In this document: piece after piece, positions 1,537 to 12,499 of the stretch
Position numbering within the stretch: the stretch's first letter is position 1
Layout: every line of letters starts with the position of its first letter
From: a virus
UHGV virus genome: UHGV-0112872
Strand: one strand, 5' to 3'
Length of the DNA stretch: 12,499 nt
Notes under the pieces: model-generated
Told to the model about the DNA's origin: nothing
Seen by the model: the letters and a program-made list of their open reading frames with translations, nothing else
Database searches by the model: none
Made by a program: the position numbers and the translations under genes

Positions 1537-1724
1537 AAAAAATGCCCTCCAATAGAGAGCATTTTTACTGTATGTATAACCAGTGTCAATGTATGAAATC
1601 CTGCGACCATACATCTCACTGAAGCCATAATGAAGTAGGCTATTCTTTTTGCTATGTGAGCATGTAACTTTTGCGGTTAACCTGTGGCTCATTTTTATTT
1701 TAGGCGCAGATATAAAAGCAAAAG

Positions 1725-1916
1725 TTATCGTGAGTTTTTAGTACAGATTTTTTTGGATTTACTAATAGTTCCATCATTGCAAACGAATTTGCCATCAGAG
1801 GTACAGTGAGAAACACCTCCCTTTTTCCCTGAGCAGGGATAATTTCTAGCATAGGTAGCTAGTGGGTTTAATAACAAAGAACATGACAAAACCACAAAAA
1901 ATACCTTACCAAGCAT
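1725..1916 (-). CDS. Small (63 aa) predicted secreted cysteine-containing protein, moron-like insert between int and cI
   Basis: Strong RBS (GGGAGG about 7 nt upstream of ATG on minus strand). N-terminal hydrophobic signal-like segment [23 protein letters not shown] followed by a polar, Lys-rich region with four further cysteines. Embedded in a conspicuously AT-rich stretch (1693-1931). Confidence 0.5.
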
Positions 1917-4220: not shown

Positions 4221-4454
4221 ATGCGTAATATTGAAACCCTCACGACTAAAACCGGACCGGATGATGCAGGTCTTAATCTTTTACTGACAGAGGCCCGACT
4301 TGAAGAACGTCGGGCAAGGGCTGAGGCAATGGCTGCCCGCCTTGATAGCCTGGCGTGTCATATCACATCCCGCCAGCTAAACCACGTCGAAGCAGCAGAA
4401 CTGCTGCGTGTGACCGCTGAAGCAATCCAGAACGAAGCGCAGGAGATCCACTAA
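4221..4454 (+). CDS. Hypothetical early protein (77 aa), helical and Ala/Arg/Glu-rich
   Basis: AGGAGA 7 nt upstream of ATG 4221; its TAA stop overlaps the next start (TAATG). Confidence 0.55.
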   Translation: MRNIETLTTKTGPDDAGLNLLLTEARLEERRARAEAMAARLDSLACHITSRQLNHVEAAELLRVTAEAIQNEAQEIH

Positions 4455-4681: not shown

Positions 4682-5535
4682 GCACCATCCTGAAATGGGC
4701 GGGAAATAAAACCGCAATTATGTCCGAACTGAAAAAATACCTACCTGCTGGCCCGCGACTGGTTGAACCTTTCGCGGGTTCCTGTGCTGTGATGATGGAG
4801 ACGGATTACCCCAGCTATCTGGTTGCGGATATTAATCCTGATTTAATCAACCTCTATAAAAAGATTGCCGCTGATTGCGAGGCGTTTATATCGCGGACCA
4901 GAACTTTGTTTGAGGAAGCAAACAGTGACCTAGCTTATTACAACATAAGGCAGGAGTTTAATTACTCAACTGAAATTACTGATTTCATGAAAGCGGTATA
5001 TTTCCTGTATCTCAATCGTCACGGTTACCGTGGTTTATGTCGCTATAACAAGAGCGGGCATTTCAACATCCCCTACGGTAATTATAAAAATCCGTATTTC
5101 CCTGAAAAAGAAATTCACGCATTTGCAGAAAAGGCCCAGCGAGCAACGTTTATCTGCGCCAGCTTTGATGAAACGCTGGCGATGTTGAAGGCGGGGGATG
5201 TGGTGTATTGCGATCCGCCGTATGACGGCACGTTTTCCGGTTATCACACTGACGGCTTCACTGAAGATGACCAGTATCACCTGGCATCCGTTCTTGAACA
5301 TCGGTCATCAGAAGGACATCCAGTCATTGTTTCTAACAGTGACACATCCCTGATCCGTTCGCTGTATCGCAATTTCACTCACCACTACATCAAGGCAAAA
5401 CGCAGCATCGGCGTGTCAGCTGGCGAGAGTAAATCTGCAACAGAAATCATTGCTGTTTCCGGGTCGCGCTGCTGGATGGGATTTGATCCTTCGCGTGGCG
5501 TGGATAGTTCTGCCGTGTACGGAGTACGTGCATGA
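4678..5535 (+). CDS. dam: Dam-like DNA N6-adenine methyltransferase
   Basis: 285 aa; ATG 4678 overlaps the upstream stop (ATGA). AdoMet-binding motif I ([11 protein letters not shown]) near the N-terminus and catalytic DPPY ([10 protein letters not shown]) downstream, the Dam-type arrangement; N-terminal KWAGNK is Dam-like. Confidence 0.85.
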
Positions 5536-7946
5536 GTCATGCCGATATGAACAACTGCTGCGGCTTTAACGAGGCTGCCGCAGCATTTTCATGGAACGGC
5601 CCGAAAAAGGCCATTAACCCTTATCTGGATCCGGCGGAAGTTGCGCCGGAGTCTGCACTTTCAAACCTGATCACTCTGTACGCTGCCGATAACGAGCAGG
5701 AACAACTGCGCCGCGAGGCACTGAGTGAGCAGGTCTGGGAGCGTTATTTCTTTAATGAATCCCGTGATCCTGTCCAGCGCGAAATGGAGCAGGATAAGCT
5801 CATTAGCCGGGCAAAGCTGGCGCATGAGCAGCAGCGTTTTAACCCGGACATGGTCATTCTGGCAGATGTCAGCGCCCAGCCTTCTCATATCAGCAAGCCG
5901 CTGATGCAACGTATCGAATACTTCAGCAGCCTGGGCAGGCCAAAGGCTTATTCCCGCTATTTGCGTGAGACGATTAAGCCATGTCTGGAGCGACTGGATT
6001 GTGTACGTGACAGTCAGCTATCTGTTTCTTTCCGTTTTATGGCAAGCCATCAAGGGCTGGAGGGGCTGCTGATCCTGCCTGAAATGAGCCAGGATCAGGT
6101 GAAACGCCTGTCCACCCTGGTAGCAGCGCATATGAGCATGTGTCTTGAGGCCGCTTGTGGTGATTTGTACGCCACCGATGACGTTAAGCCAGAAGAAATC
6201 CGCAAGACATGGGAAAAGGTGGCAGCGGAAACCCTGCGTCTGGATGTTATCCCGCCTGCGTTTGAGAAACTTCGTCGGAAAAGAAACCGCCGCAAACCTG
6301 TGCCCTATGAACTCATACCGGGTTCGCTGGCACGTATGCTTTGCGCCGACTGGTGGTATCGAAAATTGTGGAAGATGCGTTGCGAATGGCGGGAAGAGCA
6401 GTTGCGTGCTGTCTGTCTGGTCAGCAAAAAAGCATCTCCCTATGTCAGCTATGAAGCAGTGACGCATAAACGTGAGCAGCGCCGCAAGTCGCTGGAGTTT
6501 TTCCGTTCTCATGAACTGGTGAACGAAGACGGAGACACGCTGGATATGGAAGATGTGGTAAACGCCAGCAGCAGCAACCCGGCACATCGCCGCAATGAGA
6601 TGATGGCCTGCGTTAAAGGTCTGGAGCTTATCGCGGAAATGCGCGGTGACTGCGCCGTTTTCTACACCATCACCTGTCCGTCACGTTTCCATTCCACGCT
6701 CAATAACGGCAGACCAAACCCGACCTGGACAAATGCGACGGTAAGACAAAGCAGTGATTATCTGGTCGGCATGTTTGCTGCATTTCGTAAGGCGATGCAC
6801 AAAGCCGGATTGCGGTGGTATGGCGTGCGGGTGGCTGAGCCGCATCATGACGGTACTGTGCACTGGCATCTCATGTGCTTCATGCGTAAAAAAGACCGCC
6901 GCGCCATCACTGCATTACTGCGTAAGTTTGCCATCCGTGAAGACCGCGAGGAACTGGGCAATAACACGGGGCCACGCTTTAAGTCTGAGCTGATTAACCC
7001 GCGCAAAGGAACGCCGACAAGCTACATCGCGAAATACATCAGTAAGAACATTGACGGGCGTGGTCTGGCTGGCGAGATCAGCAAGGAAACGGGTAAATCC
7101 CTGCGTGATAACGCTGAATACGTTAATGCCTGGGCGTCTCTGCATCGTGTTCAGCAATTCCGCTTCTTTGGCATTCCGGGGCGTCAGGCTTACCGTGAAC
7201 TGCGATTGCTGGCTGGTCAGGCGGCAAGGCAGCAGGGTGACAAAAAAGCAGGTGCGCCGGTACTGGATGATCCGCGTCTTGATGCCATTCTGGCTGCTGC
7301 TGATGCTGGCTGTTTTGCCACCTACATTATGAAGCAGGGCGGCGTGTTGGTTCCCCGCAAATATCACTTGATCAGAACCGCTTATGAAATCAACGAAGAG
7401 CCGACCGCCTATGGTGATCACGGTATTCGTATTTATGGCATCTGGTCACCCATTGCAGAGGGCAAGATCTGCACTCATGCAGTGAAGTGGAAAATGGTTC
7501 GTAAGGCCGTTGACGTTCAGGAGGCGGCAGCCGACCAGGGCGCTTGCGCCCCTTGGACTCGTGGCAATAACTGTCCCCTTGCTGAAAATTTGAACCAACA
7601 AGGGAAAGACAAATCAGCTGATGGGGATACCAGGACGGACATTACCCGCATGGATGACAAGGAGTTGCACGATTACCTGCACAGTATGAGCAAAAAAGAG
7701 CGCCGGGAACTGGCTGCAAGGTTACGCCTGGTGAAACCGAAACGGCGTAAAGACTACAAACAGCGAATTACAGACCATCAGCGACAGCAGCTCGTCTATG
7801 AACTGAAGTCCAGAGGATTTGATGGCAGCGAGAAAGAGGTCGATTTACTCCTTCGCGGCGGCAGTATTCCGTCAGGAGCAGGCCTGCGTATCTTCTATCG
7901 GAACCAGCGTTTGCAGGAAGATGATAAGTGGCGAAACCTGTATTAA
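5532..7946 (+). CDS. A: Replication initiation endonuclease, gene A type (rolling-circle / HUH)
   Basis: 804-aa ORF, ATG 5532 overlapping the dam stop (ATGA) with GGAG upstream. HUH-type metal-binding motif (HWHLMCF) and downstream paired tyrosines (YIAKYISK), as in P2 gpA-family proteins. Confidence 0.9.
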
Positions 7947-8014
7947 TTACGCGGGTTAACAATTCGTGCTCTTAATAATACCAGGCATATCAGGCTGATG
8001 AACGTAAAAAAACG

Positions 8015-8058
8015 TTTTACATCAGTAAGATTATTATATACTGTAAATATAAACAGTG
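8015..8058 (+). promoter_or_regulatory. SOS-regulated promoter with LexA box
   Basis: Near-consensus LexA operator TACTGTAAATATAAACAGTG (8039-8058; CTGT-N8-ACAG). It overlaps a candidate -10 TATACT (8037-8042); -35-like TTTACA at 8016-8021. Immediately upstream of the Tum-position gene, as in the 186 SOS operon. Confidence 0.7.
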
Positions 8059-8099
8059 GTTATGCATACAGTATTGCTTGTGGTGTCATAGGAGGAAAG

Positions 8100-8288
8100 A
8101 TGCAGGACTATTTTTTGGAGTCTTTGAAGCTCCAGCGCATTGATTTTTTTCTTAAGCTTGTAGCGGCTAGTGAGTGTAGTGATGAAGAGAAGGGGCTGGC
8201 CCTGCAATGGGTTTCTGAACTAACAGATGAACTCATGGCAAAAATCAGAACCCACGAATACAACCGCTCAATGGATGTCATCAGCTGA
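8100..8288 (+). CDS. Small protein (62 aa) in LexA-controlled operon, occupying the position of the 186 Tum antirepressor
   Basis: ATG 8100 preceded by GGAGGA; first ORF downstream of the LexA box. Identity as a Tum-like antirepressor is positional inference only. Confidence 0.5.
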   Translation: MQDYFLESLKLQRIDFFLKLVAASECSDEEKGLALQWVSELTDELMAKIRTHEYNRSMDVIS

Positions 8289-8298
8289 GGTGACTTTT

Positions 8299-8532
8299 AT
8301 GCGCATTGAAATAATGATCGATAAAGAGCAGAAGATTAGCCAGTCTACCCTGGATGCCCTTGAATCCGAGCTTTACCGCAATCTGCGCCCCCTGTATCCC
8401 AAAACGGTAATTCGTATCCGCAAAGGTAGCTCTAACGGTGTGGAACTGACCGGACTGCAACTGGACGAAGAAAGAAAACAAGTGCTGAAAATTATGCAGA
8501 AGGTGTGGGAAGACGACTGCTGGCTGCATTGA
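8299..8532 (+). CDS. dinI: DinI-family protein
   Basis: 77 aa beginning MRIEIMIDK and ending WEDDCWLH. It aligns by eye with E. coli DinI (MRIEVTIAK ... ETWESADDWF): shared MRIE start, DAL..EL motif, central hydrophobic core, C-terminal acidic W-containing tail. GAGGTGA upstream. Confidence 0.8.
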   Translation: MRIEIMIDKEQKISQSTLDALESELYRNLRPLYPKTVIRIRKGSSNGVELTGLQLDEERKQVLKIMQKVWEDDCWLH

Positions 8533-8668
8533 TAGGTTTCGTTTGTAATGAGTCATGTTTTTTGAGTCCGATAGTAGACAGCTAGAGGGATAAATGATTA
8601 ATAGATAGATTAAACATAGTGATGGGCGTAAAATCGCGCGCATTTTATTGGCAACGGATCTGAACTCA

Positions 8669-9562
8669 ATGGCGGATAAGACTCAATCAGTAAGTATTGT
8701 GTATCAAGGCAAAGCTCTCGACGATCATAAGATGGATATTCTTTCGTTTGCGAAAAGTTTGCAGGGGCTAGGTGAGGCTATCTACTCTGCAAATGAGATT
8801 GTAAACGGAGGGCGAGACATTGAAGTTAACGTTGACGCTGAATTGATAGCCGGTTCCTTTGGGTTTGATATTGAGGTTGTACAACATCTAGCTAATGCTA
8901 AAGATGTTGTACAAATTTTAGGTTTGTCAGCCATTCCTTTAGCCGTTGGCGGTGCTACAGTTTTAGAGGTTCTCAAGAAGCTTAACGGGCGTAAGATCGA
9001 CATAGTCGAGAAAGCTAACGGTAGTGACAAAGTTAAGCTGAAAGTCGATGGTGAAGAGATTGTTTGCTCTGAAGATGTCGAAAAAATCGTTAATGCCCCA
9101 GAGATTCGTAAGGCTGTTGACGCGTTTGTCAGACAGCCTCTGTTACAAGATGGTATCGACAATTTTGTGGTAAAAAAATCGCGCACCTCTAAGAAAGAAA
9201 TCCTCAAAATTCATAAAGATGAGGCAGAAGAGTTTAAGTCGCCAAAAGTTCTCTTTGAAACCAAAGAAGAAGTTGACGAATTTGAAACAACCGTGACATT
9301 CGTTTCGGCGCATACTGACAAAAAAAGTGGCTGGCGTGTTGAGTTTGGCGGTGAAAAGCGCAATGTCAGAATGGAAGATAATGAGTTCATCAAGCTTGTT
9401 ACTGGACCAGACGCCCCCAAAATTTTTGGCGAATTGTTTGCTGTGAAGATGAAGAAAATTGTGAAAGATTCCGGTGGCCAGGTAGACGAAAAGTTATCGA
9501 TCATCAAAGTGGGTCGACACTTTGCCGCCAAAGATAGAAAAATAAAACCTGATGCGGATTAA
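8669..9562 (+). CDS. Cargo module 1, gene 1: uncharacterised 297-aa Lys/Glu/Asp-rich protein with one internal hydrophobic segment
   Basis: Long ORF (ATG 8669; alternative in-frame TTG 8648) in an AT-richer block. Hydrophobic stretch ILGLSAIPLAVGGATVLEVL around residues 85-105, then a long highly charged region. No catalytic motif recognised. Confidence 0.6.
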   Translation: MADKTQSVSIVYQGKALDDHKMDILSFAKSLQGLGEAIYSANEIVNGGRDIEVNVDAELIAGSFGFDIEVVQHLANAKDVVQILGLSAIPLAVGGATVLEVLKKLNGRKIDIVEKANGSDKVKLKVDGEEIVCSEDVEKIVNAPEIRKAVDAFVRQPLLQDGIDNFVVKKSRTSKKEILKIHKDEAEEFKSPKVLFETKEEVDEFETTVTFVSAHTDKKSGWRVEFGGEKRNVRMEDNEFIKLVTGPDAPKIFGELFAVKMKKIVKDSGGQVDEKLSIIKVGRHFAAKDRKIKPDAD

Positions 9563-9564
9563 AA

Positions 9565-9828
9565 ATGTCTATAGATATTAGTGTGTTAGGATGGTTGGGG
9601 CTGCTTGTTGCAGCTCCAGCTATATTTATAGGTGCTAGAGTGGCTATACGTAGCCTGCTCGATCGAGTTATTGTCGAAACAAAAGTTTCTATCACTTATA
9701 CTGATGCAAACAAAAATGTCTATAAAACAAATATTTATATAAACAATGATGATGAGTTAATAAAGCTCATCGATGATATAGCAGAGAAAAATAAGCGTGA
9801 GAGGAAGGAGTCAGCCTCTCATGCCTGA
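9565..9828 (+). CDS. Cargo module 1, gene 2: small single-pass membrane protein (87 aa)
   Basis: ATG 2 nt after the upstream stop (tight coupling); N-terminal hydrophobic helix GWLGLLVAAPAIFIGARVAI followed by a charged soluble tail. Confidence 0.55.
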   Translation: MSIDISVLGWLGLLVAAPAIFIGARVAIRSLLDRVIVETKVSITYTDANKNVYKTNIYINNDDELIKLIDDIAEKNKRERKESASHA

Positions 9829-10237
9829 ACAAAAGAAAACAAGCGGTAAAGCAGTCGGTGTTACAGGTGGCGGCGGTGTAGGCCTTTTCCTAATAAAGCT
9901 GGCTAGCTTCATTACAGATCCAACATGGAAAGACCTTTACATTGCTTCAATACCGATGGTGTCAATTCTTTTAAGCGAAGTTTTTACTTTTGCATGGACG
10001 ATTTATGCTGTTGATCCGCAAGAAATCAAACTGAAAAGGCGGTTGAAGGCTCTGAAGAAGCAAGCCGAAGCAGTTTTAAATGCACCATCGTCCCCTGTTT
10101 CTCCAGAAATGCGAGAGAAAGCGCAGGCTCGTTACGACGTGATCTGTGGAATTGAAATGGGAATTTACCCCCTCTCAATTGTAAATACGCTAGATGGAAA
10201 AGTATCCCCCACAGCGCAAACGCCGGACGTTAAATAG
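9821..10237 (+). CDS. Cargo module 1, gene 3: small two-helix membrane protein (138 aa)
   Basis: ATG 9821 preceded by GGAAGGAG and overlapping the upstream gene by 8 nt. Two hydrophobic segments (GVGLFLIKLASFI; IASIPMVSILLSEVFTFAWTIYAV) followed by a Lys-rich helical tail. Confidence 0.55.
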   Translation: MPEQKKTSGKAVGVTGGGGVGLFLIKLASFITDPTWKDLYIASIPMVSILLSEVFTFAWTIYAVDPQEIKLKRRLKALKKQAEAVLNAPSSPVSPEMREKAQARYDVICGIEMGIYPLSIVNTLDGKVSPTAQTPDVK

Positions 10238-10300
10238 CAGTTTCTACTTTGCATGACTATGCTGCATGAAATCGCATGATCGTTTGAGGATCGTTTTTGC

Positions 10301-10328
10301 AAAAGCCCGCCAGAACTGGCGGGCTTTT
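10301..10328 (+). terminator. Rho-independent terminator closing the right-arm operon
   Basis: GC-rich inverted repeat GCCCGCC (10305-10311) / GGCGGGC (10318-10324) followed by TTTT (10325-10328) and preceded by AAAA. Confidence 0.7.
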
Positions 10329-10373
10329 GCGTAGAGCATGCATCTGCATGAAAACCACTACATAAAGCGGGCA

Positions 10374-10392
10374 GGCGTGGCGGGGATACGAG
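10374..10392. other. Candidate cos site (cohesive-end motif of P2/186-type phages)
   Basis: GGCGTGGCGGGGATACGAG followed by GCGCGCGCT. The first 13 nt match the 186 cohesive end as I recall it (GGCGTGGCGGGGAAAGCAT; P2 is GGCGAGGCGGGGAAAGCAC), and the flanking GCGCGCT resembles the sequence next to the P2 left end. These reference sequences are from memory. Confidence 0.6.
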
Positions 10393-10522
10393 CGCGCGCT
10401 AACTCTTGGCTTTGTTTCATAATCAAAAATGTGATCATTGAGATTATTCTTAAATTTGTGTTTGTCTATGAAATATCATTTCGCTTAACATTGTTTGAGT
10501 TAGGACTACATGAGAATAAAGA

Positions 10523-11098
10523 ATGCTTTTACCCGTAAGTATTACATCGTGTGGCTTGTATCACCCCTACTGGCATTTGGGAGAGCGCAACCCTCATAGC
10601 GATGAACTATCAAGGCAGATGATGGATTTTAAGGATGAAAATAATCGTAATCATCAAAGGGCCATTAACCGTTTTTCTCGATTAGCTATAGATAAGGTTG
10701 GGCGGTTAGTAATCAGAGGTGGCGGTGGGCGTTTTGTTGAGTCTCCTTTTTCGATAGCAGTTGTCCCGTCTCACACTGAAGGCAGAATTTCACCGGCTTT
10801 GATTGAGGTCGCCGAGCGAATCGTAAATGTTCACCGTCGGGGCATTGTTGATTGCTGTTTGGAAAGAACACGCACTGTTCCTAGCGCACATCGTGAAGGT
10901 GGAGATCGCTCAATTACTGGTCACATGTCTAGTATCAGAGTTAGGGGTGGTAACCTCATGGGGCGAAATGTGTTACTACTAGATGATGTTAAAACAACAG
11001 GCGGTAGTTTGTCTGCGTGTTTTTATTTACTGGAGTCTGCAGGAGCTGGAGTTATAATGCCATTAGCTCTGCTAGAAACTGCAAACTATGAGGAGTAG
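10523..11098 (+). CDS. Cargo module 2, gene 1: phosphoribosyltransferase (PRTase, type I) domain protein
   Basis: PRPP-binding signature VLLLDDVKTTGGSL near the C-terminus, the classic type I PRTase motif also seen in ComF-like proteins. Start uncertain: ATG 10523 has a weak RBS; in-frame ATGs at 10619/10622 are alternatives. Confidence 0.7.
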   Translation: MLLPVSITSCGLYHPYWHLGERNPHSDELSRQMMDFKDENNRNHQRAINRFSRLAIDKVGRLVIRGGGGRFVESPFSIAVVPSHTEGRISPALIEVAERIVNVHRRGIVDCCLERTRTVPSAHREGGDRSITGHMSSIRVRGGNLMGRNVLLLDDVKTTGGSLSACFYLLESAGAGVIMPLALLETANYEE

Positions 11099-12062
11099 CA
11101 AAGTGCACTCAGAAGAATTAAAAAATACACTTGGATTAGCTATTCAAATCGGGAAGCTAGCATCTGATCAAAGTGTATTAAAATTCTTTGAGCTTATCGA
11201 TTTTGATGTTATTCGTGATATACGCGACTTAACTGAGATGGTTAATAGCCACGGGTTTCTAAAAGATAAAATATCTGAGACTGATTTTCTAATAGCGAAC
11301 GCTGAATTGGAGAACCACCATGTTAATGGTGTGGAGCTAATACCATATGGGTCTGAATTCTATCCTCTTAGTTTAGCTTTTACTCCTAATCCACCATCAA
11401 TTCTCTACATAAAAGGGGATAAAAGTATACTCAAAGAATTGCCGGGTGTCGCAATTGTAGGATCCCGTGATACCTCCCCTGCAGGGGAAGAAATAACGAG
11501 GCGGATCACTAATCAGATAGTGTCTGCTGGGTATATTGTTGTAAGTGGGTTAGCAATAGGCACTGATGCGAATGCTCACAAGGCAACGTTACAGGCAAAA
11601 GGAAAAACCATTGCTGTCTTGGCGCATGGTCTTGAGGAGGCTAAGCCGAAGCAAAACAGTCGACTTGCTCAAGAGATTCTGGATAAAGGTGGTGCATGGA
11701 TTTCTGAGTATCCTATGGGTCGGCCGGCCCAGAAACAATCATTTGTACAAAGAAATCGGATACAAGTTGGATTATCTGCAGGTTCAATTTTAATCGAGGC
11801 TGCGTTAAATAGCGGAACGATAACTCAAGCTGAGTTTGCAAATAAGGCGAAAAGACCAGTGTTTGCGGTTGTACCTCACCTACCTAATAATCCGCTTAAT
11901 CTTAATTGTGAGGGAACAGTTGATTTAGTTAAGAGCAACATGGCTAGAGCGCTAAAAACAAAACGGGATTATGATGATGTGATTATGATCATAAATGAGT
12001 CCCGGGAGTATTTGTTAGAGCTAAAATGGCCAGGGAAACAGAGTACATTAGACTTGATTTAA
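11088..12062 (+). CDS. Cargo module 2, gene 2: DprA/Smf-like (SLOG / Rossmann-fold DNA-processing-A domain) protein
   Basis: Segments GVAIVGSRDTSPAGEE, VVSGLAIGTDANAHKATL, KTIAVLAHGLEE, SEYPMGRPAQKQSFVQRNRIQVGLS and RPVFAVVPHLP follow the conserved order of DprA/Smf cores. Overlaps the PRTase gene end; an in-frame GTG at 11103 with AGGAG 7 nt upstream is a plausible alternative start. Confidence 0.8.
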   Translation: MRSSKVHSEELKNTLGLAIQIGKLASDQSVLKFFELIDFDVIRDIRDLTEMVNSHGFLKDKISETDFLIANAELENHHVNGVELIPYGSEFYPLSLAFTPNPPSILYIKGDKSILKELPGVAIVGSRDTSPAGEEITRRITNQIVSAGYIVVSGLAIGTDANAHKATLQAKGKTIAVLAHGLEEAKPKQNSRLAQEILDKGGAWISEYPMGRPAQKQSFVQRNRIQVGLSAGSILIEAALNSGTITQAEFANKAKRPVFAVVPHLPNNPLNLNCEGTVDLVKSNMARALKTKRDYDDVIMIINESREYLLELKWPGKQSTLDLI

Positions 12063-12085
12063 AGCGCCTCTTTTAGAGGCACTTT
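12061..12085. terminator. Hairpin between convergent genes, possible bidirectional terminator
   Basis: Stem GCCTC (12066-12070) / GAGGC (12076-12080) with TTTTA loop, extendable with one mismatch, followed by T-rich sequence. Sits in the 24-bp gap between the DprA-like stop and the convergent portal-like stop. Confidence 0.4.
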
Positions 12086-12086
12086 G

Positions 12087-12499
12087 CTAAATTTGATATC
12101 TCTCGAATTTTATAATTTCTTCACCGCTCCAATGATTAAATTCTTTCATTCTTTTTTGTAATGGTAATAATTCATTTTTCACAAATACCTTACTAGCTTT
12201 TTCTACATCCCCAAATCCCCCAACATTATTAGGCATTATCCCCATCATTTGTGGCGGCACACGATGCGCTGCCATCATGTCATCCCGACTCACGTTCTTG
12301 ATGTTAAGAAATTCATCCTTCGCCGCGACTTCTGACAACGGGATGATCTGAAGCCCGTCCTTTTTGCCGTTAGGCGAGTACATAAACAGGTTGCGGAAGT
12401 TGCCAGGGCCTTTGGCGCTTTTCATCGCATTGCGGAGGTTGTTCACATCCTCCTGGTTCTGCGCGGCATCGGTCATGTACATGATGAAGCCTGCATGAC
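12087..12499 (-). CDS. Portal-like protein (P2 gpQ position), C-terminal part; gene continues beyond the window
   Basis: Minus-strand ORF open to the window edge (...PPQMMGIMPNNVGGFGDVEKASKVFVKNELLPLQKRMKEFNHWSGEEIIKFERYQI). Leftward orientation next to cos matches the Q/portal position in P2/186; family assignment is by position and general resemblance only. Confidence 0.55.
   Translation of the reverse strand, partial: HAGFIMYMTDAAQNQEDVNNLRNAMKSAKGPGNFRNLFMYSPNGKKDGLQIIPLSEVAAKDEFLNIKNVSRDDMMAAHRVPPQMMGIMPNNVGGFGDVEKASKVFVKNELLPLQKRMKEFNHWSGEEIIKFERYQI

Follow-up and report, generated by a model that had tools for sequence, protein, structure and literature searches.

A Fels-2/186-type SOS operon with a double LexA operator and plausible read-through into a defence-like cargo cassette

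Introduction

Does the SOS-induced switch of a Fels-2-like prophage also feed transcription into the defence-like genes that lie next to it? P2-family phages carry a cos-proximal defence hotspot, the tin/old locus, in which variable anti-phage cargo is found between gpA and the portal gene gpQ (Rousset et al. 2022). LexA, SOS, Tum and DinI go unmentioned in the P2-family defence-hotspot literature that we examined. We analysed a 12,499-nt stretch of viral DNA (UHGV-0112872, here called the window), for which an earlier sequence-only reading had proposed that a LexA-controlled operon at 8015-8668 could be read through into a cargo module. The SOS switch is already characterised in 186/Fels-2-type prophages, and reading these genes as such a switch is right but not new. 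The point that goes beyond it is whether the SOS transcript reaches defence-like cargo before the next real terminator.

Results

Sequence comparison identifies the window as a Fels-2-like prophage and its region 8015-8668 as a P2-family SOS operon of the Fels-2/186 type. The backbone was matched in 1312 of the 5426 complete E. coli genomes searched, about one quarter. The CI repressor is 33% identical to 186 CI (E 8e-38) and contains the Phage_CI_repr and Phage_CI_C domains, while Peptidase_S24 scored 16.3 bits, below the cut-off of 23.3. Judged by domain content, it is a 186-type CI and probably not a RecA-cleavable S24 repressor. Replication gene A (gpA) ends at 7946, upstream of the SOS promoter. 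The features that follow it are listed in Table 1. Rfam returned no hits for the window, for L007 or for the right end of 186.

Table 1 Features of the SOS operon, cargo cassette 1 and the cos region in the window
Feature	Position	Strand	Basis
-35 hexamer TTTACA of the SOS promoter (186 p95 equivalent)	8016-8021	+	own promoter scan, conservation
LexA box 1, TACTGTAAATATAAACAGTG	8039-8058 (core 8041-8056)	+	heterology index, conservation, 186 p95 layout
LexA box 2, CAGTGGTTATGCATACAGTA	8054-8073	+	15-bp phasing with box 1, colicin-type pattern
tumA, 62-aa antirepressor	8100-8288	+	phrog_698; homologues; Shine-Dalgarno AGGAGG at 8090-8095
dinI-like gene (tumB equivalent), 77 aa	8299-8532	+	Pfam DinI PF06183 E 4e-21; phrog_189
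Leader of cargo cassette 1, 136 bp	8533-8668	+	cross-backbone conservation
Predicted cassette promoter	-35 TAGATT 8606-8611; -10 TAAAAT 8629-8634	+	pattern conservation
Weak hairpin, sole candidate terminator in the gap	8622-8643	+	dG -8.1, tail TTTATTGG, followed by TTTATT
Cargo cassette 1, three closely spaced genes of one orientation	8669-10237	+	PADLOC, recurrence in other prophages
Cargo gene 1, PDC-S42-like	8669-9562	+	PADLOC PDC-S42 E 9e-44
Cargo genes 2 and 3	9565-9828; 9821-10237	+	in cassette 1
First strong intrinsic terminator 3' of the SOS promoter, AAAAGCCCGCCAGAACTGGCGGGCTTTTG	10301-10328 (hairpin 10305-10324)	+	stem dG -16.1; fold z-score -5.7
cos site, GGCGTGGCGGGGATACGAG	10374-10392	+	match to 186 cos GGCGTGGCGGGGAAAGCAT and left flank

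The near-consensus LexA operator that had been proposed to overlap a candidate promoter was borne out. CTGTAAATATAAACAG (8041-8056) is the sole exact CTGT-N8-ACAG in the window, and the -10 hexamer TACTGT (8039-8044) forms the first six bases of box 1, which thus overlaps a sigma-70 promoter. The same layout, with the LexA box starting at the -10 TACTGT, is annotated for 186 p95. In 17 of 18 Fels-2-like loci TTTACA is kept and stands exactly 17 bp from TACTGT, and 23 of 24 related loci retain box 1. The spacer between the promoter hexamers, by contrast, diverges. Scored with a matrix of about 20 operators, the 20-mer at 8039-8058 has a heterology index of 4.2-4.7, inside the range for genuine E. 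coli operators and better than the best value in 100 shuffles of the window (7.8); we use the index for ranking only because it does not reproduce published absolute values (recA 5.45 here versus 4.31 published).

A second box overlaps the first, so that two 16-bp cores share one base, the second having a degenerate left half (8041-8071). The combined pattern CTGT-N9-CAGTGG-N8-ACAG occurs at this position and at 5063-5093 of ColE1, against a chance expectation of 0 matches. The ColE1 cea operator is likewise made of two CTGT-N8-ACAG-type boxes that share one base, with GTGG as the left half in the second, and its 31 nt are identical to the window at 25 positions and to Fels-2 at 28. By this pattern the two overlapping LexA boxes form a colicin-type operator, a detail new to this locus. 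In 17 of the 18 Fels-2-like loci box 2 has a heterology index of 9 or less; the corresponding position in 186/PsP3-like loci scores 23-33. Double operators of colicin genes bind two LexA dimers and are very tightly repressed (PMC2994835). The context there is a bacteriocin and here a prophage switch, at which the binding of two dimers is predicted. Such a double operator would predict late, all-or-none prophage induction relative to 186.

In a MAFFT alignment of the promoters, box 2 of the window fell opposite the 186 box; we set this ambiguous pairing aside, as the promoter architecture, in which the -10 is the start of the box, identifies box 1. A further candidate LexA box lies at 1566-1585, in the minus-strand int promoter at 1561-1589. 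Box 2 (8054-8073), the terminator at 10305-10324 and the cos site at 10374-10392 had been absent from the sequence-only reading.

Downstream of the operator, two small genes had been read from the letters, the first in the position of the SOS-induced antirepressor gene tum of 186 and the second a separate DinI-like ORF. Both assignments held, with gene coordinates corrected by 1 nt. The 62-aa product of the first is 98% identical to Fels-2 STM2728 and to ECHS_RS04495, the tum of the E. coli HS prophage DuoHS. In DuoHS, deletion of tum blocks mitomycin C induction, and lexA(Ind-) does likewise (PMC12055606); experimental support for the dependence of induction on tum and lexA thus comes from a 98% identical gene and not from the window gene itself. 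Neither 186 Tum nor PSP3 TumA was matched by the 62-aa protein in BLASTP. At the profile level, a relationship to the N-terminal half of Tum was found with a profile HMM (E 0.003 at Z=1000) and with hhalign (P 8e-5 across residues 1-44), and an intermediate sequence from Mixta matches both the window-type and the 186-type Tum groups (6e-16 and 3e-9). Identity to the Tum N-terminus is only about 20%. These comparisons indicate that the 62-aa ORF is a distant yet demonstrable homologue of the Tum N-terminal half, at the profile level only.

The second gene matches PF06183 over all 63 profile positions (1-63) with 75.4 bits, against a cut-off of 24.2, and is 40% identical to residues 71-145 of 186 Tum (E 2e-23). 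From its family membership, its product presumably modulates RecA. The tool scan called one hairpin terminator-like at 8277-8294, where it spans the end of tumA and the Shine-Dalgarno sequence of dinI; it is weak (6 bp, 3 GC) and lacks conservation among relatives, and we rejected it.

Homology to the phage backbone ends at the stop codon of the dinI-like gene. The 136 bp that follow travel with the cargo: in divergent backbones, the gap keeps 85-95% identity while dinI has 76-85% or no match. The 3' 80 nt of this leader are near-invariant, and the leader is more conserved than coding sequence. Its -35/-10 pattern persists in unrelated prophage contexts of Klebsiella and Proteus. On these comparisons, the gap is part of the cargo cassette, and the conserved promoter-like site within it makes it probable that the cassette has a promoter of its own. 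The consensus scan of the tool called no + strand promoter in the gap. The leader element of the slot-1 cassette comprises a hairpin and GGTTGAACAACGAG.

We also examined the gap for signals that would end the SOS transcript. The earlier statement that no convincing terminator is present at 8533-8668 stands: the tool scan, our own scan and folding (z -1.2) agree, and a stable GC-rich hairpin with a U-tract, of the kind found as t95a in 186, was not found in the stretch from the dinI stop to cargo gene 1. The one candidate, at 8622-8643, is weak, short and interrupted, with a folding energy close to that of the annotated 186 terminator t95b (-8.6), and could terminate part of the SOS transcript. 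With 12.5% C and 25% G, the gap has more G than C and is therefore a poor Rho loading site.

The cassette itself recurs as the same set of three genes in E. coli 13E0767 and in further prophages. Behind it, the hairpin at 10305-10324 is the first strong terminator, 49 nt before cos; it was overlooked by the tool scan and found by our own scan and by folding. In about 20 of 23 loci a terminator is conserved 46-49 nt ahead of cos, and the loop and stem changes seen there preserve the hairpin. Two further hairpins from a loose version of our own scan (8878-8913 and 9592-9622) were set aside, as they lie inside translated ORFs and have poor U-tracts.

Discussion

The operon of the window has close and more distant counterparts. 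In Fels-2 (STM2728/STM2726.1/STM2726) and DuoHS (ECHS_RS04495, which is tum, and ECHS_RS04500) we find essentially the same operon, with tumA and dinI split and with the promoter and double operator, like TumA, 98% identical to the window. The passenger differs: an orf97-like gene follows dinI in Fels-2 and DuoHS, whereas the window has a three-gene PDC-S42-like cassette and, across cos from it, ShosTA. By its title, a study by Bunny et al. 2002, cited in PMC3121763, reports that loss of lexA in Salmonella is lethal owing to Fels-2.

Phage 186 has the order p95 - tum - t95a - orf97 - t95b, likewise between gene A and cos. As in the window, its LexA-controlled unit codes for an antirepressor against a 186-type CI and for a DinI-like module; in 186 it also includes a passenger gene, as is predicted for the window. 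LexA-dependent transcription and the relief of CI repression by Tum have been demonstrated in the close relatives DuoHS and 186. However, 186 fuses the antirepressor and DinI parts in the 146-aa Tum, with internal starts that yield the DinI part alone, and has a single LexA box instead of an overlapping pair. Directly after tum it carries t95a (dG -18.5), annotated as a partial terminator beyond which the SOS operon continues into orf97, and for which the window has no counterpart. PSP3 has split tumA/tumB genes behind a LexA box, as in the window, but the box is single, the promoter is 186-like and its TumA is very divergent, matching the 186-like profile only (E 8e-4). The split of tum in Fels-2 and PSP3 has been described, and the upstream gene was reported to be the antirepressor (PMC3121763). 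LexA-repressed operons of the Gifsy type in Salmonella also combine a DinI homologue with a small antirepressor directed against a non-cleavable repressor (PMC3121763); these belong to lambdoid phages, begin with dinI and use antirepressors and repressors of unrelated families. The window also fits the P2-family hotspot, with ShosTA-type and PDC cargo present. Here the hotspot is divided by cos into two slots, of which the left would lie inside the SOS transcription unit.

Together, these data suggest the following model. In the lysogen, LexA bound to the two overlapping boxes would cover the -10 and the start region of the sigma-70 promoter. DNA damage would remove LexA, and TumA and the DinI-like protein would be expressed; TumA would inactivate the 186-type CI so that lytic growth begins, while the DinI-like protein presumably modulates RecA. 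The three-gene cassette appears to have been inserted exactly at the dinI stop codon, and the SOS transcript would meet no strong terminator before 10305-10324, just ahead of cos, which would place cassette 1 inside the SOS transcription unit. Since the cassette brings its own predicted promoter, read-through would add to cargo expression and would not be required for it. Given that a double LexA operator implies tight repression, the SOS promoter could not supply cargo expression in the uninduced lysogen. Cargo expression is thus probably basal in the lysogen and raised by read-through in the SOS response.

Read-through into cargo is plausible and has precedents in 186 and Fels-2. In Fels-2, the slot-1 gene STM2726 as well as STM2727 and STM2728 rose 2.6- to 14.8-fold after mutagen treatment (PMC2225428), although the rise of STM2726 on the array could alternatively reflect prophage replication or an early lytic transcript. 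With a strong cassette promoter, the contribution of read-through might be negligible. Overall, we consider this model, an SOS operon with the cargo in its transcription unit and read-through adding to expression from the cassette's own promoter, to be the probable one, with moderate confidence.

The most serious alternative, which we regard as rather unlikely, is that a genuine SOS operon in effect stops behind dinI and that the cassette is an autonomous moron expressed from its own promoter only, the SOS transcript being stopped by the hairpin and T-run at 8622-8643, by RNase processing or by occlusion at the cassette promoter. The cassette does occur in the Klebsiella and Proteus prophages with opposite-strand flanks, where it must be capable of its own expression; its leader combines the conserved -35/-10-like pattern with a T-rich tract after a small hairpin that is comparable in dG to t95b; and hotspot systems are active when cloned with their native upstream DNA alone (PMC9122126). 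However, the hairpin is short and interrupted, with TTTATTGG as its tail, in a gap that folds no better than its shuffles and whose low C content argues against Rho loading, and even the far stronger t95a terminates only partially in 186. The increase of the Fels-2 slot-1 gene after DNA damage (PMC2225428) also speaks against this alternative.

It appears improbable that the cassette lacks a useful promoter and is an SOS-only gene set, read through at induction and serving, for example, to exclude superinfecting phages in the lytic cycle, a role proposed for 186 orf97. Such an arrangement would agree with the missing terminator between dinI and the cargo, with the tool scan of the gap and with 186, whose record places orf97 in the SOS operon and whose infection is blocked by plasmid-expressed orf97. 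Yet the leader is conserved above the coding level, its -35/-10 elements are kept in non-P2 contexts that have no SOS operon upstream, and a defence silent in the lysogen would leave the host unprotected, contrary to the usual rationale for such cargo. Finally, we give almost no credence to the LexA-like sequence being a chance AT-rich palindrome, with both small ORFs expressed as the tail of an early lytic operon via gene A: there is indeed no strong terminator between the end of gene A at 7946 and 8100, the weak hairpin at 7989-8031 being the only candidate, but just three 20-mers in the 12.5 kb have a heterology index of 12 or less and two of them form the 8039-8073 operator, the boxes and the -35 are conserved amid divergent flanking bases, and the near-identical DuoHS promoter and gene depend on LexA cleavage (PMC12055606).

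As a switch, the locus follows textbook 186 biology; its potential interest lies in the wiring of the adjoining defence hotspot. We tentatively suggest, as a possibility that falls short of being likely, that the cos-adjacent, dinI-side cargo slot is built into a LexA-controlled unit in Fels-2/186-type prophages, so that any cassette there would be boosted by SOS. If this is true, the P2-family defence hotspot is tied to the SOS response, and DNA damage or prophage induction would automatically boost the cassette in the slot, in coordination with the double LexA lock and a separate LexA-controlled int promoter. Were cassettes co-induced in this way, antibiotics and other DNA-damaging stress would alter phage defence and superinfection exclusion in many lysogens, and defence assays with "native promoter" clones would miss an SOS layer of regulation.

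Among related loci, the block of terminator and cos is conserved with variable cargo upstream of it, and cos lies at a variable distance of about 100 to 3500 nt past the dinI-like stop codon. A survey of 15 distinct filled slots found 12 whose first cargo gene is on the operon strand. In the other three, most or all of the cargo is encoded opposite to the operon, and the design therefore does not universally provide for co-transcription. The sequence symmetry of the terminator at 10301-10328 suggests that it could act in both directions.

Gene layout and relatives of the window

The open reading frame (ORF) map and family scans identify the window as the early region of a P2-family temperate phage, in which the gene order is int, CI, apl/cox and CII, Dam methylase, gene A, SOS region, cargo and Q. 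Over its full length, the CI repressor is 33% identical to that of phage 186 (E 8e-38). At the DNA level, the post-gene-A intergenic region and the two small genes that follow (7947-8533) are 97-98% identical to the Salmonella prophage Fels-2, several Klebsiella phages and E. coli prophages. The stretch 7000-12499 has matches in 1312 of 5426 complete E. coli genomes.

Features of the window, with coordinates and supporting evidence
Feature	Coordinates	Strand	Evidence or description
int	true start ~1533	minus	ORF map and family scans
186-type CI repressor	1932-2507	minus	Phage_CI_repr and Phage_CI_C domains
apl/cox and CII (CP76) gene	after CI in map order		ORF map and family scans
Dam methylase	between CII gene and gene A in map order		family scans
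Replication gene A	5532-7946		ORF map and family scans
tumA ORF	8100-8288	plus	62 aa, Shine-Dalgarno AGGAGG in front
dinI-like ORF	8299-8532	plus	77 aa, Pfam DinI E 4e-21
Predicted cassette promoter elements	8606-8611 and 8629-8634	plus	pattern match to Klebsiella/Proteus upstream DNA
Slot 1	dinI to terminator and cos block		three genes 8669-10237, first PDC-S42-like
Terminator hairpin	10301-10328	plus	AAAAGCCCGCCAGAACTGGCGGGCTTTTG, symmetric sequence; stem dG -16.1, fold z-score -5.7; ends 49 nt before cos
cos site	10374-10392		GGCGTGGCGGGGATACGAG matches 186 cohesive end GGCGTGGCGGGGAAAGCAT; flanks match too
Slot 2	cos to Q		ShosT and ShosA, 10523-12062
Portal gene Q	12087 onwards	minus	ORF map and family scans

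The SOS operon and its promoter

The sequence-only reading had described a LexA operator overlapping the promoter of two small genes, the second of the DinI family, in the position of the 186 antirepressor gene tum. This operon interpretation is correct and already in the literature: earlier publications cover the division into tumA and dinI, the control by LexA and the dependence on Tum. The sole exact CTGT-N8-ACAG within the window, CTGTAAATATAAACAG (8041-8056), lies in a promoter whose -35 hexamer TTTACA (8016-8021) is followed after 17 bp by TACTGT (8039-8044), where the box starts; the 186 p95 record annotates exactly this layout. Matrix scoring, which the same reading had proposed as a check, gave the 20-mer 8039-8058 a heterology index of 4.2-4.7, inside the range of genuine operators and compared with 7.8 for the best of 100 shuffles; these values come from a matrix of roughly 20 E. 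coli operators and are suited to ranking only. An index of 12 or below is reached by just three 20-mers of the window. In a comparison of 24 related loci (from Escherichia, Citrobacter, Enterobacter, Pantoea, Serratia, Erwinia and others), the spacer has diverged but its two neighbours, the -35 hexamer and the box, have been retained, a pattern that reads as a clear phylogenetic footprint.

The DinI-like protein is 40% identical to residues 71-145 of 186 Tum (E 2e-23). By BLASTP, the 62-aa product of the first gene has no similarity to the N-terminus of 186 Tum or to PSP3 TumA, the PSP3 record being one that annotates a split tumA and tumB. For both PSP3 and Fels-2, Lemire et al. (PMC3121763) describe a split tum in which the antirepressor is the upstream gene. 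We built TumA profiles from the first ORF of the operon in all related loci. Three of these (L026, L027 and L030) have a separate, clearly 186-like TumA, and that of a Mixta locus (L029) is intermediate between the Fels-2-like and 186-like groups. Hits of the Fels-2-like profile were L029 (6e-16) and 186 Tum (0.003, Z=1000), those of the reciprocal 186-like profile were L029 (3e-9) and the 62-aa protein (0.002), and hhalign aligned residues 1-44 of the two groups (P 8e-5). On the strength of the reciprocal profiles, the L029 intermediate and the hhalign result, the 62-aa protein is, by sequence, homologous to the antirepressor half of Tum, though divergent. It is also 98% identical to Fels-2 STM2728 and to E. 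coli HS ECHS_RS04495, the latter being the locus tag of the 'tum' deleted in prophage DuoHS in the Phollow study (PMC12055606), where this deletion and a lexA(Ind-) allele each prevented induction by mitomycin C. The promoter and operator of DuoHS are likewise 98% identical to those of the window. Fels-2, DuoHS and the window have one and the same operon, which belongs to the 186 p95-tum family.

A colicin-type double operator

Directly after the first box lies a second LexA-like site, CAGTGGTTATGCATACAGTA (8054-8073), which has one base in common with the core of the first. The resulting 31-nt pattern CTGT-N9-CAGTGG-N8-ACAG has one match in the window, with 0 expected by chance, and also occurs at the cea promoter of plasmid ColE1, whose operator CTGTATATAAAACCAGTGGTTATATGTACAG shares 25 of 31 bases with the window and 28 of 31 with Fels-2. 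When the second box was rescored with a matrix that leaves out colicin sites, 17 of 18 Fels-2-like loci had an index of 9 or below. At the same offset, 186, PSP3 and their closer relatives scored 23-33, so their operators have a single box. Colicin operators of this type are bound by two LexA dimers and repress very tightly (PMC2994835). We infer that two LexA dimers would bind the window operator; if true, induction should be tighter and come later than in 186. The double operator may have gone unremarked so far, an incremental addition.

Cargo slot 1 lies inside the predicted SOS transcription unit

Backbone homology breaks off exactly at the stop codon of dinI (8530-8533) and returns as a 150-bp block (10250-10400) shared with Fels-2 and more than 1200 E. 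coli genomes. This block contains a terminator hairpin and the cos site. The hairpin, overlooked by the built-in scan, is the first strong plus-strand terminator past the SOS promoter. About 20 of 23 loci retain the hairpin and its T-tract 46-49 nt upstream of cos, and loop and stem changes among the loci leave the structure intact. Among relatives, the distance from the dinI-like stop to cos varies from ~100 to ~3500 nt, and some slots are empty while others hold unrelated genes; accordingly, cos cuts the gpA-gpQ hotspot (Rousset et al. 2022, PMC9122126) into two independent slots.

By construction, slot 1 is inside the predicted SOS transcription unit. The same logic is found in 186, where t95a, annotated as a partial terminator, is followed by orf97 and then t95b. 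The first gene is on the operon strand in 12 of 15 distinct filled slots surveyed, and in the remaining three most or all of the cargo runs on the opposite strand. In a microarray of Salmonella carrying Fels-2 after 30 min with a mutagen (PMC2225428), STM2726-STM2727-STM2728 were listed as an operon and all three rose, with fold changes of 2.6 to 14.8 (all p <=0.01). This rise is compatible with read-through into the slot-1 gene, and prophage induction could contribute. As the hotspot papers checked, including Rousset et al. 2022, make no mention of LexA, SOS, Tum or DinI, the placement of a defence slot within an SOS unit may be unremarked; it would be an incremental point, with a functional consequence that is predicted.

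The slot-1 products are a PDC-S42-like protein of 297 aa with a weak DUF7946 match and proteins of 87 and 138 aa. In slot 2, ShosT is PRTase-like (PADLOC E 4e-14) and ShosA is DprA-like (E 3e-70; Pfam DNA_processg_A E 1e-60); their genes overlap by 11 nt and have a 28% GC leader in front.

The cassette is predicted to carry its own promoter

Exactly as the sequence-only reading had it, the 136 bp between the dinI stop and the next ATG (8669) hold no convincing terminator according to a tool scan, a ViennaRNA-based scan and a fold of 8520-8680 (z -1.2). The sole candidate is a small interrupted hairpin (8622-8643, dG -8.1) followed by TTTATTGG, with an energy similar to that of the annotated t95b of 186. 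This hairpin and T-run overlap the predicted cassette promoter and are possibly a partial terminator. Since the gap is C-poor (C 12.5%, G 25%), Rho-dependent termination is disfavoured.

The three-gene cassette (8669-10237 in the window; also in related loci L048-L053) is a mobile unit. In three viral contigs where the backbone is only 74-85% identical, the gap is exactly 136 bp and 85-95% identical, and its 3' 80 nt are almost invariant, with conservation above that of coding sequence; judged by this pattern, the gap is part of the cassette. The unit also occurs, at 54-62% protein identity and in quite different neighbourhoods, in unrelated non-P2 Klebsiella and Proteus prophages. Its neighbours on both sides in the Klebsiella prophages are opposite-strand genes, so it must express itself there. 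The upstream DNA in these contexts retains T(A/T)G(A/G)TT, a 17-18-bp spacer and TA(A/G)AAT. Because the leader moves with the cassette, its 3' end is almost invariant, the unit must express itself in the Klebsiella prophages and the pattern is kept, we conclude that the cassette has a predicted, modest promoter of its own, to which any SOS read-through would be additive. The cargo thus probably does not depend on the SOS promoter.

In most relatives, a conserved element of ~75 nt stands directly after the dinI/tumB stop, with cargo inserted downstream (L007 6232-6320; equivalent sites in L010-L029; 186 (L002) 4340-4425; PsP3 (L003) ~5000), whereas in 186 it comes after orf97. It consists of a 17-bp hairpin, in which nine pairs have compensatory double changes, and an invariant GGTTGAACAACGAG-N4-5-GCGAGGCGTTAG; a T-tract is lacking, and an Rfam search gave no match. 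The element is absent from the window, the cassette-sharing relatives, Fels-2 and DuoHS. If it is an insulator or processing site, its loss from the window would favour read-through. Right after GCGAGGCGTTAG, L013, L014, L022, L023, L025 and L026 have a small conserved ORF (63-89 aa, MGKKD..YQI..) with GAGG in the Shine-Dalgarno position, which makes it a possible third conserved gene of the SOS operon in these phages.

A LexA box at the int promoter

A second strong LexA box, TACTGTATGTATAACCAGTG (1566-1585, minus strand), has a heterology index of 3.6, again for ranking only. It fills the 17-bp spacer between a perfect TTGACA (1589-1584) and AAAAAT (1566-1561), ~30 nt before the int start codon. 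DuoHS has an identical box. Together with the -35 hexamer, the box is also retained, between diverged flanks, in the divergent phage ESSI2_ev129 and in Klebsiella phage 4LV2017; in ESSI2_ev129 it is a perfect CTGT-N8-ACAG. This suggests that integrase expression is SOS-controlled. The literature searched yielded no account of LexA control over an int promoter in P2-like phages.

While int and cI abut in 186, in the window they are separated by a 63-aa ORF (1725-1916, minus strand) without a Pfam match. Its hydrophobic N-terminus, followed by a cysteine-rich mature part, resembles a signal peptide by eye, and a counterpart is annotated in E. coli HS (ECHS_RS23290).
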